64,000 nucleotides of DNA from assembly GCA_963705305.1 (NCBI GenBank), contig OY970067.1, positions 4,288,001-4,352,000 on the forward strand, read 5' to 3'. Below the pieces are notes generated by a model. That model saw nothing but the letters and a program-made list of their open reading frames with translations, ran no database searches and had not been told where the DNA came from. Origin of the DNA: an uncultured Methylomirabilota bacterium. Its GTDB lineage: Bacteria; Methylomirabilota; Methylomirabilia; Methylomirabilales; 2-02-FULL-66-22. A program made the position numbers and the translations under genes. Shown here piece after piece: positions 594-55,444 of this stretch (position 1 is its first letter; the number at the start of each line of letters is the position of its first letter).

Positions 594-620
594 CCGGAGA
601 TTAGGGGGGGCTGCCTCCGG

Positions 621-29273: not shown

Positions 29274-30083
29274 CTACTCGAGTACCTTCTTCTTCCTTTC
29301 GTTCTGCACGCATTCGAGCTGCGAGACTTGGCTATACCCGTTGAACTTCAGCGAGGCCCGCACCCGCCGCAGCAACTCCGCCCGATCCACGCTCCCCTTC
29401 GCGTCCCGCAGGTGTTTGCAGAAGTAGTACGAGAAAGCCCCGTTGAAGCTGCGGTTGATGTACGCGTCCGCTGACGTTCGGTTGTCCCGGCAGCCGGCAA
29501 ACAGCACGTGATTCATCGGGTTGGTGCCTCGAAGCAGCTTCGTCACCTCCATGTCATCATCCGCCCGGCACGCAATGTCCACAGGCGGTGGGAGAAACCG
29601 GGGCTTGAACGAGAGCTCCTGCGGAAGCCCGGCGATGACCGTCAGCTCACGCGTGCCCGTCCCCGAATGGCAGGCGTCCAGCAAGATCTCCAGGTTCACC
29701 CCCTTGGGCAGCGACCCGAAGGCCTGGCGCAGCTCGTCATCCACGATGTAGGTCCCGTATCAGTCCATGTCGTGCGGGCACAGGATCTCGTCCATCTTGT
29801 CCTTCGGCTCGTCCCCGTCCTGGTCCACGATCTGCGAGCCATGGCCCGAGAAATGGAACAAGAGCCTGTCCCCTGCCTTGGCCTTGGCCGTCAGCCAGCC
29901 GATCTTGGCCATGATGTTCTTCTTGGTGGCCCGGCCGTCCGTGAGAACCTGGATTTCCGTGGCGATGAAGCCGAAGTACTTGAGCAAAATGTCCCGCACG
30001 TTCGTCACATCGTTGACGCACCCGTTGAGATCCGCCCCCTCCATCTTGTACTTGTTCACCCCGACCAGCACCGCCTTGTTCAT
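29274..30083 (-). pseudogene. Metacaspase / peptidase C14 with an in-frame TGA
   Basis: ALVGVNKY..LNGCVND, HFSGHGSQ and LDACHSG; TGA at 29760-29762 (CPHDMD*YGTYIVDD), same frame on both sides. Confidence 0.85.
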
Positions 30084-30661
30084 TCCCTCCTCCTTTCCTT
30101 TGCCCTTGCCCTTTCCTCTTGGCTCCATGCCCTATGGTCTTCGCCTCTGCGCTTTTCCCCGACTCTCCGTCTCCCCGGTTCCCCGTCACTCCGTTTCTCC
30201 GGCTCTCCGATTCGCCCCCTCGCCCCCTCTCCTTGTCTCTCCCTCGCTCGTGCTCCTCCCTCCGCACCGCAGGCTGACCCCTGACCCCTGACCTCTGACT
30301 ACTAATCTTTGCTCCATGCCCTTGGCCCCTTGCCCCATGCCTCTTGCCTCTTTATCTTTTCTTTACACTATCTGAAATACCACATTCCTCACGCCCCGTC
30401 CAGCCGCACGGGGAGCCGTTCCATTCCGGACCATGTGCACCATCACAGGATGAAATCAGCTCAACTGGGTCCGATGCCAGGACGGGGATAGCTTTGATCA
30501 GGTGAGGGGATAGGGAAGGAAACTAAGAGGGGTGGGTCGATCCGATCTCGGCAGGTGCCCTGACCGCGCATTCGGCGGGATGGCAAGGCGGTATCGGAAT
30601 CAGGAGGGGCCGCGCTTGGCGCTCTGCTCTATGCTCTTCGCCCTGTGCGCCTCAACGCGAG

Positions 30662-30884
30662 CCGATCAGGTCCAGGATCCTGCGGGTCACGGCCTCTTCG
30701 AGCAGCACTTCGTCCGTCAGCAGATCCACGAGGACCGGTACCTGCTCCACAATGGTCACTTTCCCGCGGACGGTGAGGGAGATCGTTCGAACATCGCACC
30801 GCAGCTCGCTCATCTCCGCGGCCTCCTTCCACGAAAATCTGCGCTCCAGCGTTCCGGGTGAAGATCTGGCCGGTAGGTTGTCAC
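30662..30884 (-). pseudogene. DUF4258-like toxin tail plus truncated YgiT-like partner
   Basis: VTTYRPD..ERWSADFR.RR* overlapping MSELRCD..TIVEQVPVLV..TDEVLL; a full-length partner copy is at 45434-45634. Confidence 0.55.
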
Positions 30885-31003
30885 CAACTTCACTCGCTCA
30901 CGAACAATCCCGAACGCCATATGCCATGGTCGCCCCCCGTTTCTCGCTTTCGCCGACTCTCCGGCTCTCCGCACCAAAACACGGAACCCAGCGCGCCGGT
31001 CCC

Positions 31004-31252
31004 CTATTCCTGTGTGTAGAATTCTCTTCGAAGATCATCCTGGGGAACGAAACGGCTCGCCTGCCGAATGATCGCCTAGAGGGTGCCCACATCCAATTCT
31101 CTGTGCTGCGGGAGAGTCAATGTCTGCACGCTCCCCGAAGGTGCCACTCGTCTCAGCTTTACGTGACTCCCTCGTTGAGCGTGGACCCGAAAGCCAAACC
31201 GGGCGAGAATGGTGATCACGTCGTCGCCGGACAGCCGTCTAAGCTTGGGCAC
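31004..31252 (-). pseudogene. hicA: HicA toxin with an internal TAG
   Basis: MPKLRRLSGDDVITILARFGF....RGSHVKL...LP.HRELDVGTL*AIIRQA; stop at 31076-31078. Confidence 0.85.
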
Positions 31253-31475
31253 CGGCCGGCTCCAGCTCCATGGTCACCAAGATCGTGGGGTGCGGGACGA
31301 GGCCGAAGTCAGCGGCGTTTTCCCCTTCGAGGTGGAGGGCGACGGCCTCCTGCAGGTTTGCAAGGGTTTCGTCTACCGTCCTTCCCTGGGTTACGACAGC
31401 CAGCTCCATGCATTCGGCGACATACCAGTCGTCGCCCCGGCGAAGCAAGGCCTTCACGGTGTGCTGCAGCGTCAT
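31239..31475 (-). CDS. hicB: HicB antitoxin (short form)
   Basis: YVAEC.EL.VVTQGRTVDETLANLQEAVALHLE. Confidence 0.9.
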   Translation of the reverse strand: MTLQHTVKALLRRGDDWYVAECMELAVVTQGRTVDETLANLQEAVALHLEGENAADFGLVPHPTILVTMELEPAGAQA

Positions 31476-31577
31476 AGCTTTCTCCGCTCTCCTCTCAAGT
31501 GCTCTTGCCGTGCCCCCGCTCGCGACCGACCAACGGAACTGTCATCGCTTCTTACGCGTGCCATCGGAGTCTTCAGC

Positions 31578-31605
31578 ATTATAAGCCATCCCGGCCCAGT
31601 CGCAA
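31578..31605 (-). promoter_or_regulatory. Sigma70-like promoter TTGCGA-N16-TATAAT for hicBA
   Basis: Read directly on the minus strand; related copies at 37066-37093 and 46399-46426. Confidence 0.6.
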
Positions 31606-31943
31606 GGTTCTTCCTCCAGCCGCTCCTCTTCCTCAGCACCCCTGCTCCCGAGCGCAGCGGTGCGCCCCCTCCCTCCGGGGTGGAGCCCCTACGGGGTGGA
31701 ACCCGGACCGCAGGCTGACCCCTGACCTCTGACCTCTGACTACTAGTTTTTGCGCCATGCCCCCTGCTCTCTGCCCTCTGCTCTTTGCCCCGTGCCCCGC
31801 GCCCTATGCGCTTCGCAATCTGGTCAAAAACGTCGAATGTCCCCTAAATTCACAGGTTGGGGACGGTCTTGAAGTCCACCTGGATGGAGCGTGGTCCCAG
31901 CATGGATGCCCTTGACCTGTGATAAGAGGGCTGGTACTGTCTT

Positions 31944-31959
31944 GACCGTCTAGACGGTC
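31944..31959. promoter_or_regulatory. Perfect palindrome GACCGTCTAGACGGTC, probable TA autoregulatory operator
   Basis: 16-bp palindrome just upstream of the antitoxin gene; duplicated at 46765-46780. Confidence 0.55.
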
Positions 31960-31992
31960 TAGGCAGCCTTAGTCGTCTTGGGGGGCGTTCAG

Positions 31993-32223
31993 ATGAAACC
32001 GGAAAGGAAGATGGTCTACATCTCTGAAGAGGCTCATGGACGGCTCAAGCTCTTGGCCGCCCGCCGCAATCGGCCAATGGGGGAGCTCGTCGACGAGCTG
32101 GTCGCGCAAGAGCTGGCCGACCTCGTCAACCCCTGGACCGGTCCCGAGGGCCTGATGCTCCAGCAGAGCATCTTGGCGCGGATCTGGGATGATCCCGCCT
32201 TGGATGTGTATGACCATGATTGA
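31993..32223 (+). CDS. RHH-type antitoxin
   Basis: KMVYISEEAHGRLKLLAA; C-terminal RIWDDPALDVYD typical of MazF partners. Confidence 0.75.
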   Translation: MKPERKMVYISEEAHGRLKLLAARRNRPMGELVDELVAQELADLVNPWTGPEGLMLQQSILARIWDDPALDVYDHD

Positions 32224-32587
32224 GCTCCGGCGGGGTGACGTCGTCCTCGTAAGCTTTCCATTCGTCATCCCCAACCATACCCAGCGGAAGCGACGGCCGG
32301 CCGTGGTCGTTCAGTCCGATCGGTACAACCGCCGGCGAGCGGCCGTTATCGTCGCCGCCATCACCAGTACCCAGGGCTACGCCCACCTTCCCTGCAAGCT
32401 CCTGGTGGCGAAAGACACGCCTGAGGGCCGCGAGGCCGGTCTCCGCCTGGATAGCGTGGTAGACTGCCAGACCCTGGCCACGATCCCCCGAGGGGAGATC
32501 GTCCGCCGTCTCGGCAGATTTCCCCAGGACGTGATGCGTCGTCTGGACCAAGCCCTCCAGGACGCGCTGGGCTTGCCAGTGGTCTGA
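32216..32587 (+). CDS. MazF/PemK toxin
   Basis: RRGDVVLVSFPF....KRRPAVVVQ...VIVAAITS...GLRLDSVV. Confidence 0.92.
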   Translation: MIELRRGDVVLVSFPFVIPNHTQRKRRPAVVVQSDRYNRRRAAVIVAAITSTQGYAHLPCKLLVAKDTPEGREAGLRLDSVVDCQTLATIPRGEIVRRLGRFPQDVMRRLDQALQDALGLPVV

Positions 32588-33207
32588 AATGCTGGCGAGG
32601 AGTGTACGATTGGACGCCTGGGCGAACCTACCGTCCGCTGGCAGATTGGAAGCCGACAGGGACGCGTTGGAGTATGCACGGATGGGATGGGGAGGGGCGG
32701 CGTCAGATTTGGGACTGGCGGAGAGAGGAAGACAAGCAGCAAATAAGGTAATTACGGTTACAACGTCCCCCCGACGCTAGTTGGGGTCAGAGCTGTGCGG
32801 ATAAATATGCTGTACATTGTTGACCGAACCCTGATGGAGCATTTCTTTGCGACCTTTGCGTCTTGGCGTGAGAATATTCCGGGTCTCTCTCCATTTCGCA
32901 TTTCGAACTTCAAATTTCGAATTTTCCTTTGCGCCTCTGCCCCCCCCACTCGCCCCTGCGCCTCTTCGCCTCAGCGCCTCTACGGCCCCCTTCCCTTTAC
33001 CCTTTGCCCTTTGCCCTACGCCACAGGATACGGTCAATAATGTCGCAACGTCCCCTAGACCGAGTGGCGGAGAGTACCTCCCGGAGAGCGATCCATGTCC
33101 GGGCGATCGGCCGCTTCCCGCGGCGTTCGGAGAGGGTCCCGGGATGCAGTTTCCCCTTGCTGGCACGTCGGGATGGCGCTACACTATGGGCACCCTGGAG
33201 GTGCTAC

Positions 33208-33531
33208 ATGAGTGTAACCACGCACAGAACCCGGACCAAGGCAACGTCGCAGCGGGAGGCGGCGCCCATGGCCTCCCGGATTGTCCGCCGGAGCTTTGCG
33301 CTTCCCCGGCACATCGTCATGGAGGCCACGGCAGTGGCCCCGGCTGAGCTGCAGACCAACCTCAACCGGCTCGTCACGACCGCGCTAGAAGAGTACACGG
33401 CCACCCGCAAACAGCAGGCCTTTGCAGCCGCCATGGCCGCCATGGCGGCGGACCCTGCGGTCACCCGCGTCTCCAGCGACCTCCTGGCGGTCTTTCGCAC
33501 GACCGAGGTGGACGGCCTCCCCGATGATTAG
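33208..33531 (+). CDS. Antitoxin of the second MazF module
   Basis: RRSFALP...NLNRLVTTALEEY...AMAADP...DGL; overlaps the toxin start. Confidence 0.75.
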   Translation: MSVTTHRTRTKATSQREAAPMASRIVRRSFALPRHIVMEATAVAPAELQTNLNRLVTTALEEYTATRKQQAFAAAMAAMAADPAVTRVSSDLLAVFRTTEVDGLPDD

Positions 33532-33886
33532 CCGCGGCCAGATCTACCGCGTCAACCTCAATCCCGTCCATGGCCGCGAGCAGAAGGGGATGCGCCCCGT
33601 CCTGGTCGTCTCCGCCGATGCCATCAACCGTCAGCCGCTCGTCGTGACCGTCGTGGCAGGCACGGACGCGACCACCGTGCCCCGCGACTACCCGACGAAC
33701 GTCCGGGTGCCGGCCCGCGAGAGCGGCTTGCCGAAGGACACGGTCTTCCTGTGCTTCCAGCTCCGAACCCTCGATCCGACGCGCTTCCAGGATCCTCGCA
33801 CCGGCCAGGTGACGCCGGTGGGCCAGCTCCCGGCGGCGCGCATGGCCGAGGTCGATACAGCGCTCCGCGCCGTGCTGAGCTTCTAG
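33524..33886 (+). CDS. MazF/PemK toxin
   Basis: RGQIYRVNLNPVHGREQKGMRPVLVVS...GLPKDTV.LCFQLRTLD. Confidence 0.92.
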   Translation: MISRGQIYRVNLNPVHGREQKGMRPVLVVSADAINRQPLVVTVVAGTDATTVPRDYPTNVRVPARESGLPKDTVFLCFQLRTLDPTRFQDPRTGQVTPVGQLPAARMAEVDTALRAVLSF

Positions 33887-34290
33887 GAGCCTGGAGAGCG
33901 CCAACAAGTCTGTGGTCGCCGAATCATGCCGGCGGGACCGTTCCGCGAATAGCCCCTCCTCTTGCGTTTCAGCGCCTGATCCTACGTCCGTGCGCGATGG
34001 CACGGAGCTGGCCGACCTGACCGGCCAGGCATTGTGCCCCAAGACGGCTTGTGAAACGAGGCCCTATCGGCAATCCCACGTCTCCCCCGTGCCGGCGGAT
34101 CGCCCTCGACCGCGAGAACCGCCTCGACGCTCATCTAGCCGCTTTCTCCCGAGCGTCGCGGGAGCGGAGAAGGGCATGCGGACGGCGGTCGTCAGGAGCG
34201 GCAGGCGGGAAGGGGGGGGATCGGACTCAGGGACTTGAGGGAGGCCCGGAAGGGTGGCGGCAACAAGGTAATTAAGGTTACAACGTCCCC

Positions 34291-34902
34291 TCGGCCTTGT
34301 TCCCCTCCATCAGGGGCACGTGTTTGTGGGCCGCCGCGTGGAAGAGGACCTCGGGCAGGTGCTCCTCCAGGACAGCCGTCATCCGCGCCTCGTCGGTGAC
34401 ATCGGCGATCACGGGGTGGAGGACGAGCTTCGGGACCTTGTCCCGCAGCTCCAGCTCCACGAAGAAGAGGCCGTTCTCGGACCGGTCCAAAAGGACCAGC
34501 TCGGCCGGCTCGAACCGGGCGATCTGGCGGCACAGCTCCGACCCGATGGAGCCGCCCGCCCCCGTCACCAGGACCCGCTTCCCGGACACGAACTGCTCCA
34601 CCTCGGCCTGGTCGATGCGGACCGGCTCGCGCCGCAGGAGGTCCGCGATGTTCAGCCGGCGGGGCCTCACCGCCAGGGCCGGGCTGTCCGTCAGCTCGCG
34701 CAGGTTGGGGATCGTCTTGAACTCCACCTGGGCGGACCGGCAGGCCCCGATGATCCGGCGCATCTGCTCGCCGGTGGCCGAGGGGATGGCGATCAAGAGC
34801 TCGTGGATCGCATGCGTGTGGCACAACCCGGGCAGCTCGTCGATCGTCCCCAGCACCTTCTTGCCGTGGATGCGCCGGCCCTGCCTGGCCGGATCGTCGT
34901 CC
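34291..34902 (-). pseudogene. 612-bp internal fragment of a CapD/PglF-like dehydratase gene
   Basis: Collinear with 54270-54881 but with many substitutions; begins immediately after site A at 34261-34290. Confidence 0.9.
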
Positions 34903-35008
34903 GCGGGCCCCACCGTACCGTCCGTCCCTCTCCTCGGAAGGTCTTGACATGTGTTGTCAGATCTGCCAACATCGCAATTACCGGCGGCCCAAGGGAAGGC
35001 AAGATACG

Positions 35009-35355
35009 ATGACTCGGAAGACACGACCAATTTCGTGGGTCAGCGCGGCGCTCAGGGAATTCCAGGCGTTCCCGGAGGGGGCCAAGGCGATTTGTCTTGC
35101 CGCTCTCACGGTGGCCGCTGAAAACGAGAAAGCTGACATTGCGAGCCGATGCACGGCATGGGCGCGGGTGTATTTGAGATCGCTCTGCGGTTTCGGAGCA
35201 ATGCGTTTCGAGTCGTCTATCCCGTGCAGCTTGGAGACGACATCTGGGTGCTCCATGCGTTCGAGAAGAAATCGAAGCGGGGCGCCAAAACTCCGGGGGG
35301 CGAAATCGATTTGATTAAGAACCGCCTGAAGAGATTGAGGGAGATGTTGCCATGA
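35009..35355 (+). pseudogene. RelE/Gp49-like toxin, frameshifted
   Basis: MTRKTRPISW..AALREFQAFP...KADIA / (K)PMHGMGAGVFEIAL....FRVVY....IWVLHAFEKKS; one base missing near 35143. Confidence 0.85.
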
Positions 35356-35672
35356 AAACAAAGGGGGAAGTTATGCGCGGCAGCGGGAATGTTTTCCGCG
35401 ACTTGGGCCGTGAGACCGCGGATATTGAGCAGTTCAAGGCAATCCTGGCCGCGGAAATCATTAAGACCCTCAACCGGGAGCGCTTGACCGTGCGGGCCGC
35501 GCAGGCGCGCACGGGCATTGCTGCGGCCGATTTCTCGCGCATTCGGAACACGGACCTCGGCCGGTTCACCGCCGACCGCCTCATGGCGACCCTCAACCGA
35601 CTCGGGGCGCGGGTGGAGGTCAAGGTCAGGGTGCGGCGCGCCGAACCTGTCGCGCACCGCGCCACAGCCTAG
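35352..35672 (+). CDS. XRE-family HTH antitoxin
   Basis: GSGNVFRDLG...KAILAAEI...TGIAAADFSRIR..DLGRFT.DRL. Confidence 0.88.
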   Translation: MKTKGEVMRGSGNVFRDLGRETADIEQFKAILAAEIIKTLNRERLTVRAAQARTGIAAADFSRIRNTDLGRFTADRLMATLNRLGARVEVKVRVRRAEPVAHRATA

Positions 35673-35896
35673 CTGTCACGTTGGCTCGTTCACTGCGCAG
35701 CGCAAAGGCTGAAGACGGCGGTGGGCTGGCAGGGGCAGCGGAGTCAGGGGTGAGCAGAGGCTGGAAGGAGGGGAGTTGGAAAATAAAGTCAATAATGTCG
35801 CAACGTCCCCTAAACGTTCTGCCGTTCGACGTTCCACGTGCTCCGCTCGATGTTCCTAACCGCCGCACGTCGAACCGCAGCACGTCGAACCGTCTC

Positions 35897-36280
35897 CTAC
35901 CGCAGCACCCCGGAGGCCCAGCCGAGGATCCCGAGGCCCGCACCGGCAGTATCCAGCAGCACGTCCCACGGGGTGCCGTGGCGGCCAGGCACGAAGGTCT
36001 GGTGCCACTCGTCCAGTCCCCCCACCGCCATTGCCGTCGCCAAGGCGCAGGCGATGACCAGCGTTCGCTGCCGGCCGTTGCCATTCGTCGCAGATCGGGA
36101 CAGCAGCCAGCCGAGGACCGCGTACTCCGCCAGGTGGATGCTTTTTCGAAGAAGCAGGCGCAGCACGTCCCCGTCCCGCATGGGGAGCGCGTGGGACGAG
36201 CCAATCAGAAAAATAACGCCAACCCAGATGAGCGTGAGCATCCAGAGTCGGCGGCGATCGGTTACCGTCGCAATCTGCAT
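35897..36280 (-). CDS. VanZ-like membrane protein
   Basis: LRKSIHLAEYAVLG..L and DEWHQTFVPGRHGTPWDVLLDTAG. Confidence 0.85.
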   Translation of the reverse strand: MQIATVTDRRRLWMLTLIWVGVIFLIGSSHALPMRDGDVLRLLLRKSIHLAEYAVLGWLLSRSATNGNGRQRTLVIACALATAMAVGGLDEWHQTFVPGRHGTPWDVLLDTAGAGLGILGWASGVLR

Positions 36281-36416
36281 TTGGCAATCTGACCTTCGCC
36301 TGGAGATGCAGTCAAAAAGCGTATACTGGGGCCTGCTCCAGGCGAGATAATCTCCGTCCCGCTATCCTGCACGGCCTGAAGGAGTTCCTCAACAGAGACC
36401 TCCCCCTCGCTCAGCC

Positions 36417-36764
36417 TTAGATGTAGAGAAGTTGGTCCGCCACCTCGGAGGCTGCCAACCGCGTGAGGAGGCGGCCCACTCTCGCCACTATCTCCGTCGG
36501 TAGACGCCGGCGGGCAATGATGATGCCTGTATGGTGCCTGCCCACCCCCAGCCACTCGCTGTGAAGGCGTTCGAAGTCGGCACGGTTGTGCGTCAGCAGG
36601 GCCCGCCGCATCCTCGTGGCATGCGCCAGCTGCTCGTTGTCGGAGAGACCCAGTTGTCCAAGGTCGCGGGTGGTCACCGCATCAAAACCGCGGCCCCGCA
36701 GGATAGCGGCGACGACGACCGAGACATCTTCGTCGAGGTAGAGGGCGGCAGGGGGATCAGGCAT
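36417..36764 (-). CDS. DUF5615 PIN-like toxin
   Basis: LYLDEDV....A..LR.RGFD...SDNEQL..A....RALLTHNRADF...HTGII. Confidence 0.88.
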   Translation of the reverse strand: MPDPPAALYLDEDVSVVVAAILRGRGFDAVTTRDLGQLGLSDNEQLAHATRMRRALLTHNRADFERLHSEWLGVGRHHTGIIIARRRLPTEIVARVGRLLTRLAASEVADQLLYI

Positions 36765-37041
36765 CGGGGCGGGATGCCGGGTGGGCTAGCTCGTCCGGAA
36801 CCTCATTGCGCTCGGTGTGCAGATCGATTTCCCCCTGGTGATCCGCATAGTAACTGAGCGCATCAAAGACCTGCGCTAGGGTCAGGTAGGGAAAGTGCAC
36901 GGGAATCTCTTCGGGCGTCACGCCCCCCCGCCAGAGACCCACCACGGCTCGCACGGGAACGCGGGTGCCCTGGATGACCGGCTCGCCCCCGAGGATACTG
37001 TCGTCCCGGATGATGTACCGATGTTCCGTGGCAACGACCAT
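36757..37041 (-). CDS. DUF433 antitoxin
   Basis: ILGGEPVIQGTRVPV...TPEEI...FPYLTLAQVFDALSYY. Confidence 0.9.
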   Translation of the reverse strand: MVVATEHRYIIRDDSILGGEPVIQGTRVPVRAVVGLWRGGVTPEEIPVHFPYLTLAQVFDALSYYADHQGEIDLHTERNEVPDELAHPASRPDA

Positions 37042-37512
37042 ACGCCTTCCCTCCGGCTGCTCCGCATTATAGGCCATCCTGGCCCATTGGCAAGTCTCTT
37101 CCTACCGCGGCCCCTCTCGCTCGCTGAAGCCTGGCGGCTCTCTGCGTCCGTCGCCGCCTTGACCGGGTGGCGCCCGGGTTGCGCACGTAGGCGAGATCCA
37201 CCGCAGGCGTAGGGCTTGCCGCGCAGCTTTCCGACCCGATCGTGCGGCGACAGCGGACGAGCGGAGAAAGGCATGCGGACGGCGGTCGTCAGGAGCGGCG
37301 GCAGGCAGGGCGGTGACAATAAGGTAATTAAGGTTACAACGTCCCGTCGATGCTTTGGTGGGGAGAGGAGACGGGGAAGTCGGAAGGAGAGAGGGTCGAT
37401 CGGCTTTCGGCGTGTGCGGTGGGGGTGCGTACGGTGGGACGGCAAGGCGCGATCGGAATCAGAGGCGGCTTTGCCCTTTGCCCTGTGCGCTATGCGCTTC
37501 GCCCTTTGCGTT

Positions 37513-37830
37513 TCAAGGCGAGCCAATGAGAAAAATAACGCCGACCCAGGCGAGCGTGCGCGTCCAGAGCCGGCGAGGGTCAGTCAGATTGGAGATCCGC
37601 ATTCGGAGGACCGACGAAAGATATATCCACTACCCTCCAGCTAGAGCCGCTTGGTGCGCCCCAACCTCAAAAATGAGTTGCCACCACGAGCCCGATAGAC
37701 GCACCGGTCAGCGCGACCGCGAAGACTCTGAGCAGTGTATGCCCATGCCGGCCTGGAAACGCTCCTTCGCCCCCGCTTTTCCGATTCTTCCCTACTCGCC
37801 GGCGCCTTCGTCCTCCACACCCTGGTTGAT
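37513..37830 (-). pseudogene. Diverged remnants of the vanZ 5' end and the upstream small ORF
   Basis: 37513-37605 resembles ~52580-52665; 37670-37775 resembles 52728-52830. Confidence 0.65.
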
Positions 37831-37833
37831 TAC

Positions 37834-38187
37834 CTACGAGGGTGGCGTCGAGATCCGTATCCGTCCGCCGCGGACCGTGATGATCATTCCACCCGTGAGG
37901 GCGTCTTCATGTCGTTCCAGAACCTGCGCCATCAGCTCAATGCGTTGCTTCGCCGGAACATCGGGCAAGCGGACGATGCCGCGGTGTGGCGCTGCCTCGA
38001 GAAAGACCAGTTCGCCGAAGTCTGTGTCGATCGTGACGAGAATGCGCTCTTCGCTCGCGGCCCACTGGAGCAGCACCCGATCCCCAGGATCGTGTCCGCG
38101 CACCCGGGACTCGAGGACGTCATGCCCCTGCCCACGGAGCCAGTCGGCGAGTCGCCGGCCGGCACACCGGTCCACCAGGAATCTCAC
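37834..38187 (-). CDS. DUF5615 PIN-like toxin
   Basis: RFLVDRC.G..LA.WLR.QGHDV...D..LLQWA..E.RILVTIDTDFGEL. Confidence 0.88.
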   Translation of the reverse strand: MRFLVDRCAGRRLADWLRGQGHDVLESRVRGHDPGDRVLLQWAASEERILVTIDTDFGELVFLEAAPHRGIVRLPDVPAKQRIELMAQVLERHEDALTGGMIITVRGGRIRISTPPS

Positions 38188-38432
38188 TGCCCGGCCACCC
38201 GGACCGCATCGAGGGTATCGTTGGCGATCACGGCGCGCGCGTACGAGAGGCACGCGCGGATGTCGTCGGGTTCCAGATCGGGATACTCAGCGAGAATATC
38301 CTGCACCGACTCACCCTGAGCGAGCAGGCTCAGAATGAGTTCCACAGAAATTCGCATCCCGCGGATAATCGGTTTCCCGCCGAAGATTTCCGGGTTCGCA
38401 ACGATTCGCCTGAGAAGCTCTGGATCTGTCAT
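38184..38432 (-). CDS. DUF433 antitoxin
   Basis: RIVANPEIFGGKPIIRGMRISVELIL..L..G....IL.EYPDLEPDDIRACL. Confidence 0.92.
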   Translation of the reverse strand: MTDPELLRRIVANPEIFGGKPIIRGMRISVELILSLLAQGESVQDILAEYPDLEPDDIRACLSYARAVIANDTLDAVRVAGQ

Positions 38433-38974
38433 GGTCTCACCACCCCTCCACGGAGCATTCCGGCAGAGTGTCACAGCGCCCATAGTATACCATCAATCCG
38501 CCGGTTTTCCTGGTTTTTGCCCTGAGCGCGGAAACCCTAACCCGCAACGGTCCGACCCTCGACGCTTCGGATGGAACGCGGTAAGAGGAGAGGGGTCGGA
38601 ATATCTGGGTGGCGGGACGGCAGGGCGCGATCGAGGTCAGGGGTGAACGGAGGCTGGAAGGAGGGGAGCTGGAAAATAAAGTCAATAATGTCGCAACGTC
38701 CCCTCGACGCATTGGTGGGGAGAGGAGACGGGGAAGTCGGAAGGAGAGGGGGTCGATCGGCTTTCGGCGTGTGCGGTGGCGGTGCGTACGATGGCACGGC
38801 AGGGCGCGATCGGAATCAGAAGCGGCTTTGCCCTTTGCCCTGTGCGCTATGCCTTTTGCGCTACGCTCTTCGCTTTTCGCACTGTGTCCCTTGCCGCAGA
38901 GCCCCCCTCGTGGTAGGCTCACGCCAGCATCCCGGGCAAACGATCAGCCGTGCAACTGCCTGGAGGAGTTGGCC

Positions 38975-39226
38975 ATGAAACCAAAGAGGCCCGCACCTGT
39001 CGAGATCGCGCCTCGCATCGCGGTGAATTCGCGGGTACGATTCGGGCAGCCCGTGATCAAGGGAACGCGGGTCCCCGTGGCCGTGGTCTTGGATGAAATG
39101 GCGGCGGGGACCGCCATCGAAGATATCACACGGGAATACGGCATCACGCGTGATGATGTGCGTGCGGTGTTTCGCTACGCCGCCAAGGTACTGGGTACCG
39201 AGGAAGTCAGGGCAGCGAGCCGGTGA
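38975..39226 (+). CDS. DUF433 antitoxin
   Basis: RIAVN..VRFGQPVIKGTRVPV..V...AAG..IEDI..EYGITRDDVRA..RYA. Confidence 0.9.
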   Translation: MKPKRPAPVEIAPRIAVNSRVRFGQPVIKGTRVPVAVVLDEMAAGTAIEDITREYGITRDDVRAVFRYAAKVLGTEEVRAASR

Positions 39227-40644: not shown

Positions 40645-41154
40645 TGCCTCCTCCGTCCTATTTGTCCTTGAACCGAATCCAGCCGGGCCCTTCTTGGCGC
40701 ATCGGCGGCAAGAGGCTTCCGGGATAGAGCTAATTGTGTAACTATTGTCTAGTATTACACATCCAATGAACACAGTCAACCCGCAACTCGGCGCGCCATC
40801 TGACCGCAGATGAGGATTCGGAGAAACTGAGGCGGGTCGTGAAGGGGGACGGCTGAAGCGGGATCGGAATCAGGAGGGGCCGCGCTTGGCGCTCTGCTCT
40901 ATGCTCTTCGCCCTTTGCGCTGTGCGTTTCACAATAAGGTAATTAAGGTTACAACGTCCCCTCGACGTGACCGACCTGACCAGCTCCGGCCGCTGGGCGG
41001 TGATCGCCGCCTGCGGAGTCCCCTCCGCAACCGCACCCGCCCCCACCGCGGCCGATTCCGCGAGCACCGCCTGGGCCGGTGAAGATGGCAACGGAACTTT
41101 CAGAACTGAAAAATCCGGATGGATTTTGTCGGTAAGGCCGGCATGATCGATGAC

Positions 41155-41445
41155 TCAAAAGATCTTCAGATGCGCGCGGAACACATCGTAGTTTCGCCGC
41201 ATCTCCCCCAGGCTGTCACCCCCGAACTTCTGGATCAACGCCCGGGCCGTCTCGAAGGCCACCACCGCCTCTCCCACCACCCCGGCGGCGGGGACCGCGG
41301 TGATGTCCGTCCGCTCCACGCCCGCCTTGCTGGCCTCCTTGATGACCACGTCCACCGATGCCAGCGGCTTGAGCTGGGTGGAAATAGGCTTCATGGCGCG
41401 TCAGGCCTGCGTGCGCAGGGGTATGAGATCATACCGCGCCAGCAT
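41155..41445 (-). pseudogene. aroC: Chorismate synthase C-terminal remnant
   Basis: MKPIST..KPL.SVD....A....[18 protein letters not shown]......L.KFGGDSL.E. Confidence 0.85.
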
Positions 41446-41457
41446 GCCTCCCAGAAA

Positions 41458-41489
41458 GCAAAAACGCACCCTGGTGGGTGCGTTTTTGC
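41458..41489. terminator. Rho-independent terminator hairpin
   Basis: GCAAAAACGCACCC-TGGT-GGGTGCGTTTTTGC. Confidence 0.7.
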
Positions 41490-41518
41490 CTCAGTGAAGC
41501 CCTGGTTTTCTCCGGTGG

Positions 41519-41725
41519 TCAGCTCAATTTCGTCTCTTCCAGGATCGTCGGCGTGATGAAGATGAGCAGTTCGATCTTATCCTGGGGACCGATCGTGTGC
41601 TCTTGAAGAGAGCCCCCAGCAGCGGCACCTGGCTCAGCTAGGGGACCCGGGACTCCGGCCAGCTGTCGTCGGTTTGCAGGAGGCCGCGATGACAACCGTG
41701 GAGGCGTTGGATACCAGGAACTCAT
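41519..41725 (-). pseudogene. pilQ: Secretin (PilQ-like) C-terminal remnant
   Basis: Across frameshifts reads LVSNASTVVI(G)GLL.....ESRVP*LSQVPLLGALFK / KIELLIFITPTIL. Confidence 0.75.
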
Positions 41726-45705: not shown

Positions 45706-45824
45706 CAACTTCACTCGCTCACGAACAATCCCGAACGCCATATGCCATGGTCGCCCCCCGTTTCTCGCTTTCGCCGACTCTCCGGCTCTCCGCACCAAAA
45801 CACGGAACCCAGCGCGCCGGTCCC

Positions 45825-50449: not shown

Positions 50450-52166
50450 GAGCGGAGAAGGGCATGCGGACGGCGGTCGTCAGGAGCGGCAGGCGGGAAG
50501 GGGGGGGATCGGACTCAGGGACTTGAGGGAGGCCCGGAAGGGTGGCGGCAACAAGGTAATTAAGGTTACAACGTCCCCTCGGCCTTGTTCCCCTCCATCA
50601 GGGGCACGTGTTTGTGGGCCGCCGCGTGGAAGAGGACCTCGGGCAGGTGCTCCTCCAGGACAGCCGTCATCCGCGCCTCGTCGGTGACATCGGCGATCAC
50701 GGGGTGGAGGACGAGCTTCGGGACCTTGTCCCGCAGCTCCAGCTCCACGAAGAAGAGGCCGTTCTCGGACCGGTCCAAAAGGACCAGCTCGGCCGGCTCG
50801 AACCGGGCGATCTGGCGGCACAGCTCCGACCCGATGGAGCCGCCCGCCCCCGTCACCAGGACCCGCTTCCCGGACACGAACTGCTCCACCTCGGCCTGGT
50901 CGATGCGGACCGGCTCGCGCCGCAGGAGGTCCGCGATGTTCAGCCGGCGGGGCCTCACCGCCAGGGCCGGGCTGTCCGTCAGCTCGCGCAGGTTGGGGAT
51001 CGTCTTGAACTCCACCTGGGCGGACCGGCAGGCCCCGATGATCCGGCGCATCTGCTCGCCGGTGGCCGAGGGGATGGCGATCAAGAGCTCGTGGATCGCA
51101 TGCGTGTGGCACAACCCGGGCAGCTCGTCGATCGTCCCCAGCACCTTCTTGCCGTGGATGCGCCGGCCCTGCCTGGCCGGATCGTCGTCCGCGGGCCCCA
51201 CCGTACCGTCCGTCCCTCTCCTCGGAAGGTCTTGACATGTGTTGTCAGATCTGCCAACATCGCAATTACCGGCGGCCCAAGGGAAGGCAAGATACGATGA
51301 CTCGGAAGACACGACCAATTTCGTGGGTCAGCGCGGCGCTCAGGGAATTCCAGGCGTTCCCGGAGGGGGCCAAGGCGATTTGTCTTGCCGCTCTCACGGT
51401 GGCCGCTGAAAACGAGAAAGCTGACATTGCGAGCCGATGCACGGCATGGGCGCGGGTGTATTTGAGATCGCTCTGCGGTTTCGGAGCAATGCGTTTCGAG
51501 TCGTCTATCCCGTGCAGCTTGGAGACGACATCTGGGTGCTCCATGCGTTCGAGAAGAAATCGAAGCGGGGCGCCAAAACTCCGGGGGGCGAAATCGATTT
51601 GATTAAGAACCGCCTGAAGAGATTGAGGGAGATGTTGCCATGAAAACAAAGGGGGAAGTTATGCGCGGCAGCGGGAATGTTTTCCGCGACTTGGGCCGTG
51701 AGACCGCGGATATTGAGCAGTTCAAGGCAATCCTGGCCGCGGAAATCATTAAGACCCTCAACCGGGAGCGCTTGACCGTGCGGGCCGCGCAGGCGCGCAC
51801 GGGCATTGCTGCGGCCGATTTCTCGCGCATTCGGAACACGGACCTCGGCCGGTTCACCGCCGACCGCCTCATGGCGACCCTCAACCGACTCGGGGCGCGG
51901 GTGGAGGTCAAGGTCAGGGTGCGGCGCGCCGAACCTGTCGCGCACCGCGCCACAGCCTAGCTGTCACGTTGGCTCGTTCACTGCGCAGCGCAAAGGCTGA
52001 AGACGGCGGTGGGCTGGCAGGGGCAGCGGAGTCAGGGGTGAGCAGAGGCTGGAAGGAGGGGAGTTGGAAAATAAAGTCAATAATGTCGCAACGTCCCCTA
52101 AACGTTCTGCCGTTCGACGTTCCACGTGCTCCGCTCGATGTTCCTAACCGCCGCACGTCGAACCGC
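50450..52166 (+). repeat. Direct duplicate of ~34162-35878 (capD fragment 50579-51190, frameshifted Gp49-like toxin 51297-51643, XRE antitoxin 51640-51960)
   Basis: Offset 16288; identical translations. Confidence 0.93.
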
Positions 52167-53152: not shown

Positions 53153-55444
53153 TCAGTCATCCGCCGTGCCGGCGCTGGTTTCGGCGGCCGATGGCGAGCG
53201 CCTGAGCAGCTCCTGCACCCGCTTCTCCACGATGCTGACCGGGAGGGGCTTGTAGATCCGGTCGGCGGCCCCCAGGGCCGCGACTTGGTCCATGCTGAGC
53301 ACCTCGGCCGAGTCGGCCAGCAGGAGGATGGGCACCCCCTGATGCCTGAGCTTCTCGCAGAGCCGCTTGATGTTCGTCCGGGGCAGATGGTGGTGCAGGA
53401 TGACGAGGTGGAGGGGTGCATCTTTCAGGTGCTGGAGGGCCTCCCGCTCGGTCTCGGCCTCCAGGACGAGGTAGCGGGCCTGGAGGATCCGTTTCAGGGT
53501 CTTCCGGGTGTAGGGGTCCGCCTCTACTACCAGGATCCGCTCGGTGCGCCGGGGGCGACGGGTCGGGGGCGGGGCCCCATCCACGTAGCCCGGGACCAGC
53601 GCGGCCAGCATGGCCGAGAGCGCTCGCTGATCCTCGGTGTCGGCATGTTTGAGCAGATCCTGGATCCCGGCCTCCAGCTTACCGAGGTCGTTCGGCTCCG
53701 CCTCCACGACCATGATCTTCTCGTGAAGGGTGGGCAGGACGCGGGTCTCGGAGTTCAACAGCTCCTCGAACAGCTTCTCCCCCGGCCGGACCCCCGTGAA
53801 GGTGATCTCGATGTCCCGCTCGGGATCCAGGCCCGAGAGGGCGATGAGGTCCTTGGCCAGGTCCAGAATCCGCACCGGATCGCCCATGTCGAGGACGAAG
53901 ATTTCCCCGCCCTCTCCTTGCGTTGCCGCCTGGAGGACGAGCTGGCTGGCTTCCGGGATGGTCATGAAGTAGCGCAGCATGTCGGGGTGGGTGACCGTGA
54001 CGGGCCCCCCGGCCTCGATCTGGCGCTGGAAGACCTGGAGGACGCTCCCCTCGCTGGCCAGGACGTTGCCGAAGCGCACCGTCATGAAGCGGGTGGCGCT
54101 CTTGACGTTCAGCGCCTGGACGTACATCTCGGCCAGGCGCTTGGTGGCGCCCATGATGCTGGAGGGACGGACGGCCTTGTCGGTGGAGATCATCACGAAG
54201 TGCTCCACCCCGACCCGCTCGGCCGTCCGGGCCGCCACCATCGTCCCCCGGACGTTGTTCTTGACCGCCTCGGCCTTGTTCCCCTCCATCAAGGGCACGT
54301 GCTTGTGGGCCGCCGCGTGGAAAAGCACCTGGGGCAGGTGCTCCTCCAGGACAGCCGTCATCCGCGCCTCATCGGTGACATCGGCGATCACAGGGTGGAG
54401 GACGAGCTTCGGGAATTTGTCCCGCAGCTCCAGCTCCACGAAGAAGAGGCCGTTCTCGGACCGGTCCAGCAGAACGAGCTCGGCCGGGTCGAACCGGGCG
54501 ATCTGCCTACACAGCTCCGACCCGACGGAGCCGCCCGCCCCCGTTACCAGGACCCGCTTCCCCGAGACGAACTGCTCGACCTCGGCCTGGTCGATCCGGA
54601 CCGGCTCGCGCCGCAGGAGGTCGGCGATGTTCAGCCGCCGCGGCTTGACGGCCATCGCCGGACTGTCGGCCAGCTCGCGCAGGTTGGGAATCGTCTTGAA
54701 CTCCACCTGGGCGGACCGGCAGGCCCCGATGATCCGGCGCATCTGCTCGCCTGTGGCCGAGGGGATGGCGATCAAGAGCTCGTGGATCGCATGCGTGTGG
54801 CACAGGTCGGGCAGTTCGTCGATCGTCCCCAGGACTTTCTTGCCGTGGATGCGCCGGCCCTGCCTGGCCGGATCGTCGTCCACATATCCGACGACGTTGT
54901 ACGGCAGCCCGACGTTCCGCTCGATTTCCCGGACGAGCATCTCCGCCGCATCGCCCGCCCCCACCACCAGGGCGCGCTTCTCGCGGCGCTGGCCGTTCAT
55001 GGCTGACTCGCGCAGAGCCCGGATAGCCAGGCGGCCGCCGCCGGCGAACAGCAGGCAGATCCCCCAGTCGATCGGAAAGATCGGCCAGGGAAAGTCTTGG
55101 TTTATCAGTCCCAGCACGATGGCGGCAAAGAGCACGGAGCTGAGGGTTACCGCCTTCACAATCTTGAGAATGTCCCGCATGCTGACGTATCGCCAAACCT
55201 CCTCGTACATGTGGAACCAGGCGAACGCCAGCAGGCGCAGGGCCAGGATCAGCGGCAGCGTGTGGACGAGCTGCCGCCAGTCGTCCCGGTCCACCGGGTA
55301 CTCGAACCGCAAGACAAATGCAAGACAGTACCCGCCCCCGACCAGGCCGGCGTGCAAGAGGACGATGATCACCCGCCGCAGCGGCGCGATAGCCTCCACG
55401 AGACGCCCCATCCGATTCTTGACACCCACCGCAGAAGCGCTCAT
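53153..55444 (-). CDS. CapD/PglF-like UDP-sugar 4,6-dehydratase with a C-terminal receiver-like domain
   Basis: N-terminal TM segments, VVGAGDA, VTGAGGSVGSELCRQ, HAAAHKHVP, STDKAV.P.S.MGATK, VRFGNVL and RPGEKL.EEL; REC-like tail. Confidence 0.93.
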   Translation of the reverse strand: MSASAVGVKNRMGRLVEAIAPLRRVIIVLLHAGLVGGGYCLAFVLRFEYPVDRDDWRQLVHTLPLILALRLLAFAWFHMYEEVWRYVSMRDILKIVKAVTLSSVLFAAIVLGLINQDFPWPIFPIDWGICLLFAGGGRLAIRALRESAMNGQRREKRALVVGAGDAAEMLVREIERNVGLPYNVVGYVDDDPARQGRRIHGKKVLGTIDELPDLCHTHAIHELLIAIPSATGEQMRRIIGACRSAQVEFKTIPNLRELADSPAMAVKPRRLNIADLLRREPVRIDQAEVEQFVSGKRVLVTGAGGSVGSELCRQIARFDPAELVLLDRSENGLFFVELELRDKFPKLVLHPVIADVTDEARMTAVLEEHLPQVLFHAAAHKHVPLMEGNKAEAVKNNVRGTMVAARTAERVGVEHFVMISTDKAVRPSSIMGATKRLAEMYVQALNVKSATRFMTVRFGNVLASEGSVLQVFQRQIEAGGPVTVTHPDMLRYFMTIPEASQLVLQAATQGEGGEIFVLDMGDPVRILDLAKDLIALSGLDPERDIEITFTGVRPGEKLFEELLNSETRVLPTLHEKIMVVEAEPNDLGKLEAGIQDLLKHADTEDQRALSAMLAALVPGYVDGAPPPTRRPRRTERILVVEADPYTRKTLKRILQARYLVLEAETEREALQHLKDAPLHLVILHHHLPRTNIKRLCEKLRHQGVPILLLADSAEVLSMDQVAALGAADRIYKPLPVSIVEKRVQELLRRSPSAAETSAGTADD

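Follow-up and report, generated by a model that had tools for sequence, protein, structure and literature searches.

The two capD stubs that lie in a toxin-antitoxin (TA) cassette array beside a polysaccharide locus are probably the relic of a second capD allele, left behind by turnover of DNA between related lineages at the edges of that locus and joined there at repeats. The array was analyzed in a window of 64,000 nucleotides, the whole stretch considered here, taken from the complete 5.65-Mb genome of an uncultured Methylomirabilota bacterium; positions are those of the window unless given as genome positions. On this reading, the stub would be a non-functional internal piece of another capD-receiver allele, which was functional while it evolved in a lineage about 7% diverged (dS ~0.24) from that of the resident gene. 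An earlier sequence-only reading had proposed that an orthologous capD fragment was imported together with the neighbouring TA module by one-ended rolling-circle or peel-and-paste capture, an interpretation that our results partly support.

The resident, intact capD-receiver gene (53153..55444, − strand; 763 aa for the longest ORF) encodes CoA_binding_3, Polysacc_synt_2 and Response_reg domains and is the first gene of the polysaccharide locus. Window self-BLAST and base-by-base alignment matched resident positions 54268–54881, ungapped over 614 bp, to stub copy I (34289..34902, − strand) and likewise to copy II (50577..51190, − strand), each of which is 93.16% identical to the resident (42 mismatches, 0 gaps) and spans its codons 189–392. 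This interval covers the end of CoA_binding_3 and the first ~100 positions of Polysacc_synt_2, and the GAGGSIGS NAD-binding motif is contained in copy I; an N-terminal Rossmann NAD(P)-binding glycine motif is a feature of CapD/FlaA1/EpsC-type NDP-sugar dehydratase/epimerases. The stub ORF (34278–35030) matched positions 1–100 of the 293 of PF02719 in Pfam (E 2e-28), and the resident matched PF02719 (Polysacc_synt_2) at positions 1–292 (E 1e-114). Judged from its domains, the stub is a fragment of a CapD/FlaA1/EpsC-type member, predicted to be non-functional, with the full Polysacc_synt_2 domain absent. Searching the complete genome by tblastn and at the DNA level revealed no second capD besides the resident and the stubs.

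The 42 differences between stub and resident were distributed 9/2/31 over the three codon positions, with 31 at third positions, and they change eight residues, conservatively, over 204 codons. The silent changes and conservative substitutions described in the sequence-only reading were thereby confirmed, and all of the peptide differences that it quoted were present. Nei–Gojobori analysis of the 204 codons gave dS 0.242, dN 0.021 and dN/dS 0.088 (approximate 95% range, 0.05–0.23), far from 1 (dN/dS = 1 rejected at p ~1e-11), and the stub contained neither stop codons nor indels across 614 bp at 7% divergence. In the glycine motif, which reads TGAGGSIGS in the stub and TGAGGSVGS in the resident, Ile occupies the NAD-binding motif column in 30/30 homologues; the stub has the ancestral Ile and it is the resident that has changed. 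The residue changes fall on both branches, that of the stub and that of the resident. A mosaic origin would be expected to cluster the mismatches, and no clustering was found along the stub (longest identical run, 62 bp; p = 0.38). The low dN/dS, the lack of stops and the changes on both branches bear out the proposal that the fragment diverged under selection as a working gene; the sequence relations and this signature of selection were observed directly. Of the two outcomes that the sequence-only reading had named as refuting it, an identical full-length paralogue elsewhere in the genome and a dN/dS near 1, neither was seen.

The sequence-only reading had the capD piece in two copies. Both are indeed present, and they are letter-identical over 34240–34960, but they count as one event and not two, because both lie inside a recent segmental duplication of 99.8–99.9% identity. 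Self-BLAST delimited copy I of this duplication at 30659..35950 and copy II at 45480–52285, the latter with two extra cassettes at 47596–49038, and resolved three pairs of blocks: 30659–32774 and 45480–47595 (99.86%), 33002–34158 and 49039–50195 (99.91%), and 34162–35895 and 50450–52183 (99.83%). These kilobase-scale duplicates carry seven scattered differences, with the stub in the same context in both. To the right of the stub lies a higBA-like module (35010..35672, + strand; duplicate at 51298–51960), whose Gp49/HigB-type toxin gene is split over two frames by a frameshift near 35140 and whose HTH_37 antitoxin gene (35352–35672) is intact. It is followed by a VanZ-like gene, V (35897..36280, − strand), with a homologue, V′, that adjoins the resident capD. 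V and V′ are 93% identical over 260 bp (36000–36259 versus 52378–52637), and the identity of copies I and II drops from ~100% to 93% just before V; a VanZ-like gene thus follows the higBA–B block in both places, and the 93% stretch begins exactly at the end of the near-identical duplication. Rfam and tRNA scans of the window gave no matches.

The array adjoins the polysaccharide locus at the 3′ end of the resident capD, and consists of short cassettes, many of them TA modules, punctuated by 11 sites that all lie on the + strand. Site A2 (34265..34290), a solo terminal inverted repeat of family A (AAGGTAATTAAGGTTACAACGTCCCC), touches the stub with its outer face and has a duplicate in A6 (50553..50578). 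Site A1 (32745..32770) has its duplicate in A5 (47566–47591), where the near-identical duplication stops 4 bases beyond the site and the later cassettes differ, and at A4 (40936..40961) a second set of core-gene stubs follows the letters TCGAC. The solo family B repeat B2 (35783..35810; ATAAAGTCAATAATGTCGCAACGTCCCC) matches letter for letter the end of the intact element that occupies genome 1466802–1467877. Further solo B repeats lie at 33029–33055, 38676–38703 and 49066–49092, a variant of the family at 48005–48033, and the last site of the array, B5 (52071..52098), at a distance of ~1 kb from the resident capD's stop codon. Site A3 (37321..37346) ends in ...GTCCCG, and its right flank is 91% identical to that of B3 despite the different site families; site B1 is a hybrid of the B′ and B4 units, with one cassette missing there. 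We read these flanks and this hybrid as recombination between sites, and ordinary homologous recombination from one repeated site to another can account for much of the shuffling of cassettes.

A RAYT-like family of Y1 (HUH) transposons ("TIRtrons") has site A as its terminal inverted repeat, and the A and B sites of the array are solo ends rather than elements. Inverted GGGGACGTTG... termini were present in 7/7 inspected elements (1054–1079 bp), which are located outside the window; intact elements measure 1.05–1.08 kb, carry no cargo and have inverted termini of 27–30 bp. The genome holds 29 transposase-like loci, 13 of them full-length, and none lies inside the window; neither a transposase gene nor a remnant of one was found in the array. 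The transposase of intact elements matched NCBIfam REP_Tyr_transpos at E 1e-12 with 48 bits, under the 80-bit cut-off, and had no Pfam hit at E ≤1e-5; H-x-H (HAHLL/HCHLL) and NRY are visible in the translations. An intact B-family transposase is present, encoded on the − strand at genome 1466834–1467832 within the element at 1466802–1467877. For family A, no transposase gene was found in this genome, and none of the 14 A-type matches (6 forward, 8 reverse) forms an inverted pair, the one that was checked in context, in the array, being solo. A GTDB-wide exact scan for the A repeat returned one locus only (L117), in another genome, where the repeat follows the stop codon of a Y1 transposase gene of the same class. 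The termini read GGGGACGT and depart at one or two of eight positions from GGGGWSAS, the published TIRtron/TIRYT repeat motif (PMC3733652). No inverted partner end was detected in the window (0/5 minus-strand 7-mer hits with repeat context), and DNA folding of 120 nt at 10 sites on both strands gave no significant hairpin (z-scores −1.5 to +2.1).

A mirror-image array, with its sites on the minus strand, occupies the far side of the polysaccharide locus (genome 4383165–4392717). There, a truncated gmd lies directly upstream of an fcl-like epimerase gene, with 24 bp separating it from a B site's outer face, and an intact gmd is found 5 kb inside the array. The two gmd sequences are 86.8% identical (dS 0.54, dN/dS 0.10), and the GC3 of the gmd stub (0.72) is near that of the locus (fcl, 0.67), the intact gmd having 0.86. 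Since the depth of the capD pair (dS 0.24) differs from that of the gmd pair (dS 0.54; p = 0.003), the two pairs do not stem from one event. Stub and intact gene are nevertheless paired in the same pattern at opposite edges, and we count this in favour of turnover at the locus edges; like the identity of the sites, these second stub pairs are observations. The GC content over the polysaccharide locus (genome 4352–4372 kb) is 50–58% versus 63.4% for the window, which is typical of exchanged clusters. The stubs next to A4 form a three-part mosaic (40967..41719, − strand) collinear with genome 4642135–4646029: an internal piece of a wza-like gene (79%), the 3′ end of aroC with its spacer (93.0%, 316 bp), and a pilQ-like 3′ end with its spacer (86.7%, with frameshifts and a stop). 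With eight synonymous and eight non-synonymous differences over 80 codons (dN/dS 0.32), the aroC-region piece is compatible with either an old decaying self-copy or an import. The source locus of this mosaic is 300 kb away, and a model confined to the local edge leaves it unexplained. A tblastn search of both arrays with 36 proteins revealed no relics of the polysaccharide locus beyond the capD, gmd and wza/aroC/pilQ pieces. Weak paralogue hits on the intact gmd were also seen in that search.

A closer donor of the stub was sought in three collections. Among 60 relatives, the best DNA match had 71% identity (G020) and the next 68% (G006), with 19 of 61 genomes, the window's own included, giving any match; G020, the nearest relative having capD, shares no flanks with the window, and its gene lies near a contig end. 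In metagenome contigs, where 577 of 594 candidate stretches encode relatives, the best protein identity among the best 80 of the 577 was 52%, in a set from which records very near this genome may be missing. In a collection of 5.8 billion proteins, the best identity among the matches listed was 74%. The resident capD protein itself was absent from the matches listed. The higBA block was found at 75–78% identity in five of 20 same-genus genomes, none of them a donor. No relative was near enough to show either capD allele in place, and we infer transfer between lineages from the divergence alone. The proposal that the fragment was imported with the neighbouring TA module was not sustained, since no donor was found and an arrival of the resident capD and its locus as newcomers fits equally.

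In gene sense, the stub is joined with its 3′ side to the A repeat, at the outer face of the latter, and with its 5′ side to the promoter region of the decaying higBA module. The sequence-only reading had 612 bp of capD begin at the base after site A; its coordinates agree with ours within 2 bp, but the letters CCTCG at the left junction fit both the site consensus (...AACGTCCCCTCGAC) and capD (...GCCTCGGCC), so that the stub is cut at the site only to within ~5 bases. The chance that a given fragment end falls ≤5 bp from one of 11 site edges in the 19.4-kb array is ~0.006. A repeat-core 9-mer, GGACGTTGT, which occurs 88 times in the genome on both strands, is present in capD 10 bp from the break and, together with a CGTCC-CCC-GGACG palindrome in capD, occupies the region 10–25 bp from it. 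The far end of the stub, ...CGTCGTCC, resembles the repeat terminus ...AACGTCCCC, a likeness of only 5–6 letters in GC-rich DNA. Unrelated DNA is joined 3–5 bases after ...GTCCCC at three independent sites, namely at capD, at the wza-like piece and at an IS fragment (genome 2299741). An enzyme-made junction would fit the exact outer-face join and the capD 9-mer better than plain homologous recombination.

Junctions of this kind are what would be seen if an A-family element in or next to the capD of a related lineage had taken 0.6 kb of capD in a one-ended or read-through Y1/HUH event, the unit then being delivered with higBA into the array. The stub does start at the outer face of a genuine Y1-transposon end, foreign fragments start 4–5 bases after GTCCCC at two more sites, the genome has an intact B-family transposase, and a dN/dS of 0.09 makes the stub's parent a working gene; the resemblance of the far end to a terminus and the 9-mer with its palindrome point the same way, the former weakened by its shortness. 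We nevertheless consider such a capture unlikely, even though it is the most serious competitor. The left-end (inverted) partner is absent from the window, the array is without transposase or remnant, the genome is without an A-family transposase gene and its 14 A-type matches are not inverted pairs, and the intact elements are free of cargo. A Y2 HUH (IS91-type) transposase next to the stub was not found either, with 0 hits among the 125 window ORFs passing a composition filter, and no donor turned up in relatives, metagenome contigs or the protein collection. Moreover, the stub adjoins its own resident homologue, which random capture does not predict. Of the one-ended rolling-circle or peel-and-paste mechanism put forward earlier, the part that stands is that the site is a Y1/HUH transposon end, Y1/HUH being the enzyme class of peel-and-paste elements; capture driven by a transposase is unsupported.

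It is very unlikely that the single-contig genome is a composite and the stub a mis-joined capD of a co-occurring strain, although the estimated contamination of the genome is 6.49%. The junction between A site and stub is bridged without difference by contigs of two public runs from one study (X1 record 4, 34275–34619; X2 record 10, 34252–34402); contigs of the public runs did not cover the right junction (34902/34903) or higBA. Run X1, which may be the source sample, alone has most of the stub's words (0.76), and runs X3 and X21 yielded only 40–60-nt conserved pieces of 90–95% identity. One X1 short-read contig has 0 differences from the stub over 34632–34772, where the resident differs at 12 places, and then switches to seven resident letters and the resident's continuation, as a composite might. 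This switch crosses the 62-bp identical stretch, however, which exceeds the 31-letter words from which the contigs were built. In addition, the stub occurs twice in the same context within kilobase-scale duplicates that carry scattered differences, and nothing would lead an assembler to insert 614 bp from another strain where a repeat meets a TA module.

A decaying copy of the resident gene itself is scarcely credible. In this scenario, the array would have received a piece of the resident capD by duplication; one possible route is a tandem duplication ending at 54881 and 51191, followed by deletion to the A site. Duplicating higBA-B-V-capD (3′ part) and deleting to the A site would give the order of copy II in two steps with capD unbroken, and the tandem-duplication model was rejected because it accounts for the right junction but not for the divergence, and because the same geometry fails for the gmd pair. 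A neutral copy compared with a constrained gene is expected to show dN/dS of ~0.5 or more, and values of at least 0.5 were rejected at p ~4e-6; likewise, 614 bp at 7% divergence without stops or indels, and an ancestral residue kept by the stub at a 30/30-invariant column where the resident has changed, speak against decay in place. The sequence-only reading was right, then, in holding that the fragment was not self-copied. A self-copy survives only if a later allelic replacement is added, and it then becomes part of the preferred explanation. The least probable account, practically discounted, is that the sites are of attC type, the array an attC cluster without integrase and the stub a cassette placed by an integrase at a secondary site: the short cassettes, many of them TA modules, between same-strand sites and one integron-integrase-like gene above the TIGR02249 cut-off would suit it, but we rejected it because that sole match (genome 853432–854377) is 3.47 Mb from the window and broken into two frames with one in-frame TGA, and because the sites are not attC-like, showing no imperfect palindrome (folding z-scores as above), no GTTRRRY/RYYYAAC consensus boxes by reading, and identity to Y1 transposon ends.

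We therefore return to turnover of a second capD allele at the locus edges; how the events followed one another, which way the DNA moved and how it was joined are inferred as follows. The array and the polysaccharide locus would form a recombination hot spot, in which DNA of related lineages replaced or joined resident DNA; the solo repeats would have served both as points of breaking and joining and as portable homology; turnover would have left edge-gene stubs on either side, of capD to the left of the locus and of gmd to its right; and the stub-bearing block would very recently have been duplicated or gene-converted within the array. A local origin of the stub is likely, given that it lies on the same strand as the resident capD and that copy II is close, ~2 kb from the 3′ end of the resident and 3.1 kb from the homologous segment. 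The data would fit an immigrant stub and an immigrant resident capD with its locus equally well; we lean slightly towards the resident capD and the low-GC polysaccharide locus as the newcomer and the stub as the older allele. The GC3 of the resident (0.90) equals that of the stub and is native-like, giving no mark of an immigrant.

Read in this way, the capD stub would be a dated trace of close lineages of a Methylomirabilia-type bacterium exchanging DNA at a locus for cell-surface polysaccharide, in a group for which close genome pairs are not available, with joins that fall at solo end-repeats of a little-studied transposon class. A bolder idea, which we hold to be improbable, is that the solo Y1/HUH TIRtron ends (two tandem 9-mers + CAACGTCCCC + TCGAC) might serve for recombination in a cassette system that resembles integrons but lacks an integrase. 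A RAYT-like transposase acting in trans would then cut a site at its outer face, join it to similar-looking sequences in other DNA, build same-strand TA/defence cassette arrays on both flanks of the locus and take up parts or entire alleles of the adjacent chromosomal genes from related lineages. If the repeats are sites used by an enzyme, the arrays would represent a second, HUH-based route of cassette accumulation beside integrons. If they are passive homology, the stub would be an ordinary gene relic in a recombination hot spot, with the practical caution that such stubs should not be annotated as genes or taken for paralogues.

In the pneumococcal cps and enterobacterial O/K loci, serotype or locus switching proceeds through recombination within conserved flanking genes, and mosaics or remnants of those genes are left behind. 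The locus studied here resembles them in its low-GC variable polysaccharide cluster between conserved flank genes and in its diverged second copies or stubs of flank genes (capD, gmd) under purifying selection. Unlike in capsule or O-antigen switching, no hybrid is formed within the flank gene; the stubs stand apart as pieces attached to transposon-end repeats, in the TA arrays that flank the locus on either side. Capture of flanking DNA by HUH elements is known from the one-ended rolling-circle transposition of IS91/ISCR and from the 3′ read-through of Helitrons. As in those systems, the outer face of one element end is exactly where the gene fragment starts, and the fragment's far end is weakly terminus-like; by contrast, they use Y2 enzymes and distinct ori/ter ends, whereas here the class is Y1 with inverted ends and the captured piece has no adjoining complete element. 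The peel-and-paste elements of IS200/IS605 have different left and right subterminal hairpins and no inverted repeats, whereas the complete elements of this genome have 27–30-bp inverted termini and the sites are without a significant hairpin.

Integron cassette arrays gain, lose and swap DNA at the level of the cassette, as happens here. The same-strand sites 0.3–4 kb apart and the TA-rich cassettes are also reminiscent of integron arrays and of attC clusters lacking integrase (PMC7923331). Unlike integrons, the array has no integrase nearby, its sites are not attC-like and come from transposon ends, and its genes lie on either strand. REPINs and REP sequences with their RAYTs, and BIME clusters, are likewise short, non-autonomous multicopy repeats that depend on an IS200-superfamily enzyme of the Y1/HUH class (PMC3337134, PMC3333891). 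REPs are hairpins, usually extragenic and in inverted pairs, whereas the sites of the array are not significantly structured and, unlike REPs, are direct repeats marking junctions with foreign DNA. The nearest relatives are the TIRtrons or TIRYTs, which the passages covered of Di Nocera, De Gregorio and Rocco (2013; PMC3733652) describe as genes for RAYT-like Y1 tyrosine transposases that lie between terminal inverted repeats. The elements of this genome agree with that description in length (~1.07 kb), in their single RAYT-like gene and in inverted ends of ~27–30 bp starting with GGGG, and there are, as in the TIRtrons, several families of ends per genome and gene-less repeats that are single, paired or grouped (PMC3733652). 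Those passages describe dimers and clusters and no cassette arrays, whereas the repeats of the window are all solo and on one strand, bear TCGAC as an additional conserved element and regularly mark off TA cassettes and gene stubs from one another.

The capD stub, a non-functional gene fragment in the toxin-antitoxin (TA) cassette array, occurs twice (34289-34902 and 50577-51190), and self-BLAST of the window aligned each copy with 54268-54881 of the resident gene over 614 bp at 93.16% identity, with 42 mismatches and no gaps. The stub corresponds to codons 189-392 and lies on the same strand as the resident gene, a minus-strand fusion of a capD-type gene with a receiver domain (53153-55444; Pfam CoA_binding_3, Polysacc_synt_2 at E 1e-114, and Response_reg). 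Differences at codon positions 1, 2 and 3 numbered 9, 2 and 31 and altered 8 residues over 204 codons, including every peptide difference quoted in the sequence-only reading. Over these 204 codons dS was 0.242, dN 0.021 and dN/dS 0.088 (approximate 95% range 0.05-0.23, conditioned on the 42 differences). A neutral copy compared with a constrained gene is expected to give at least 0.5, which was rejected at p ~4e-6, as was a ratio of 1 at p ~1e-11, upholding the earlier proposal that the fragment diverged under selection. The mismatches were not clustered (p = 0.38). When the 8 residue differences were polarised against 30 homologues, the stub was found to retain an Ile common to all 30 where the resident gene has Val, and the resident gene was found to agree with most homologues at three further columns; conservative change therefore occurred on both branches. 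The parent allele of the stub was thus shown to have been a working gene during most of the 7% divergence.

DNA searches and tblastn of the whole genome revealed no second capD, the next best match to the dehydratase domain being 28% identical. The fragment had been attributed to a related lineage; no closer relative was found among 60 relatives (best, 71% DNA identity), in metagenome contigs (52% protein identity at most in the 80 loci retained) or in the protein collection (best, 74%). Among sequencing runs, the stub was present only in X1 and, in part, in X2, two public runs from one study. Contigs of both runs bridged the site/stub junction with 0 differences, and none bridged the right junction. 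One X1 contig resembled the stub over 34632-34772 and the resident gene from 34773; because its path runs through a 62-bp stretch identical in stub and resident gene, it could represent either an artefact of the graph or a recombinant.

Each stub copy follows a site A (A2, 34265-34290; A6, 50553-50578), one of two families of solo terminal repeats of RAYT-like Y1 (HUH) transposons. The site A 22-mer occurs six times in the window at no more than three mismatches, against 0.00 expected. The 7-mer ACGTCCC or its complement occurs 24 times in the window, and at 11 of these the whole site structure is present, two 9-mers in tandem and then CAACGTCCCC. All 11 are on the plus strand, six of family A (TAAGGTAAT TAAGGTTAC) and five of family B (TAAAGTCAA TAATGTCGC), and span 32745-52098 mostly in the order A, B, A, B; none of the five minus-strand 7-mer matches in the window has this structure, and the B copy at 48005-48033 is mutated. 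Many sites, in this array and in a second one, are preceded by tracts of 7-8-nt repeats (YTTTGCSC / TGTGCGC type; in the window, at 30590-30650, 32980-33025, 37450-37515 and 40870-40930, among others). Elsewhere in the genome, elements of 1054-1079 bp, each with a gene of ~330 codons, are bounded by the same terminus with other 9-mers, inverted in 7/7 inspected. The element protein matched the NCBIfam 'REP-associated tyrosine transposase' at E 1e-12, under the cut-off, and had no Pfam match at E ≤1e-5. Family B is the end of an intact element (genome 1466802-1467877), and the genome holds no A-family element with a gene. In a GTDB-wide exact scan, only one other genome carried the A repeat, directly 3' of the stop codon of a transposase-like gene whose C-terminal 54 residues share 61% identity with the B-family protein (E 1e-14). 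The parent elements of the array sites agree with the 'TIRtrons/TIRYT' as outlined by Di Nocera et al. 2013 (PMC3733652).

At the left junction the array reads TTACAACGTCC followed by CCTCGGCC, and the resident gene CTTGACCG followed by CCTCGGCC. Since other A sites continue from CCCC into TCGAC, CCGAC or TCGAT, the CCTCG at this junction is common to site and gene. The stub is shown to be joined to a solo transposon end. The right junction, GGATCGTCGTCC followed by GCGGGCCCC, leads into the promoter region of a higBA-like module, in which the Gp49/HigB-type toxin gene (35010-35355; also 51298-51643) is split over two frames by a frameshift near 35140 and the HTH_37 antitoxin gene is intact. 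Unrelated DNA begins 4-5 bases after GTCCCC at two further sites, A4 (40936-40961) and genome 2299741. Directly after A4 lies a stub mosaic (40967-41719) made up of a wza-like internal piece (79%) and the 3' ends of aroC (93.0%) and of a pilQ-like gene (86.7%, with frameshifts), collinear with genome 4642135-4646029, 300 kb away, with deletions between the pieces. The aroC piece, with 8 synonymous and 8 non-synonymous differences (dN/dS 0.32), would fit import as well as an old self-copy in decay. At genome 2299741-2300088, a solo repeat of another end family precedes an IS fragment that is 81% identical to the start region of the DDE transposase element at window 63304-63624. Window 62177-63526 holds a copy related to, but distinct from, a 1.52-kb insertion sequence (DDE_Tnp_1_4) at window 1-606 (genome 4287086-4288606); the near-identity of the ~30 genomic copies of the latter (99.7-100%) suggests very recent expansion.

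The fragment had been reported at site A in two copies; both are present, but they are letter-identical with their flanks and lie inside one segmental duplication, so that they are one event. By self-BLAST, the duplication joins 30659-32774 with 45480-47595 (99.86%), 33002-34158 with 49039-50195 (99.91%), 34162-35895 with 50450-52183 (99.83%) and 35873-35950 with 52208-52285 (100%). Starting exactly where an A site ends on its outer side, entire cassettes distinguish the duplicates (32775-33001 vs 47596-49038): 227 bp follow A1 (32745-32770), and 1443 bp follow A5 (47566-47591), with two cassettes, an AF2212-like gene and an MNT/HepT pair, both of which end in a B unit. Site B1, in copy I, is a B'/B4 hybrid, and the right flanks of A3 (37321-37346) and B3 are 91% identical by self-BLAST behind different site families. 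The copies are ~100% identical until shortly ahead of a VanZ-like gene, where identity drops to 93%; in both places this gene comes after the higBA-B block, and in copy II it adjoins the resident capD. These comparisons show that the sites serve ordinary recombination or gene conversion both as homology and as boundaries.

The genome is complete in a single contig of 5,645,311 bp, of which the window (GC 63.4%) is 4288001-4352000. Window positions ~12.4-53.1 kb form a patchwork of gene stubs, TA modules (ParE/RHH, PIN, zeta, Phd, AbiEii, HicAB, MazEF, Gp49/HigB-HTH_37, DUF433/DUF5615 and MNT/HepT), a Tn7-like tnsB/tniB/tniQ set (Mu-type transposase, TniB, two TniQ) and a TOTE-type primase-helicase gene (18416-25545 and 41950-44541). 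A caspase-like (Peptidase_C14) gene at 29274-30128 is split into two neighbouring ORFs, which match profile positions 2-100 and 108-230. The polysaccharide locus starts at 53153, with capD as its first gene; genome 4352-4372 kb, carrying glycosyltransferases, Wzy-like and flippase-like genes, aminotransferases and similar genes, has a GC content of 50-58%, an atypical composition. A second TA array (genome 4383165 to ~4392717) contains HEPN/MNT and HepT/MNT pairs, and all of its A and B sites lie on the minus strand, opposite to the window array, so their outer faces again point toward the polysaccharide locus. Outside the window, a truncated gmd (last ~120 codons; genome 4382777-4383140) immediately precedes an fcl-like epimerase gene, and the outer face of a minus-strand B site is 24 bp away; an intact gmd (4388385-4389455) is found 5 kb deeper in the array. 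The truncated and intact genes share 86.8% identity over 116 codons (dS 0.54, dN/dS 0.10), and GC3 of the gmd stub (0.72) is like that of fcl (0.67), against 0.86 for the intact gene. The same kind of stub is thus shown at the other edge of the locus, and both edge genes therefore exist as one intact copy and one stub. Both stubs diverged under purifying selection, and the depths of synonymous divergence differ (p = 0.003), indicating separate events.

DNA of related lineages would thus have been turned over at the locus edges and joined at solo repeats, with recent duplication or conversion within the array probably following. We lean slightly toward the polysaccharide locus as the incomer, leaving stubs of the old edge genes, given the gmd case and the low GC of the locus, although the composition of the resident capD is native-like. 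That composition and the exact join at a transposon end make the converse, that the stub came in, nearly as probable. The interpretation put forward in the sequence-only reading is borne out in part, its observation itself being confirmed. A transposase may have made the junction: at 54242-54258, 10-25 bp from the stub break, the resident capD contains CGTCCCCCGGACGTTGT, which codes for a conserved N-N-V-R-G-T stretch and is a small palindrome with, 10 bp from the break and inverted, a 9-mer of the transposon-end core that has 88 genome occurrences on both strands. Transposase-driven capture, by one-ended rolling-circle or peel-and-paste transfer, is nevertheless unlikely, and an integron-like 'HUH cassette system' built on these sites somewhat more doubtful still, because the array has no partner end, complete element or transposase (29 transposase-like loci by tblastn of the genome, 13 full length, none in the window). 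The sites do not fold like attC, and that identity was rejected. A single integron-integrase-like gene exceeds the TIGR02249 cut-off (genome 853432-854377); it lies 3.47 Mb from the window and is broken, being split over two frames with one in-frame TGA. A diverged repeat belonging to the superfamily of the sites lies at 859212-859249. The stub is a gene relic at the edge of a polysaccharide locus, in an array built on TIRtron ends.
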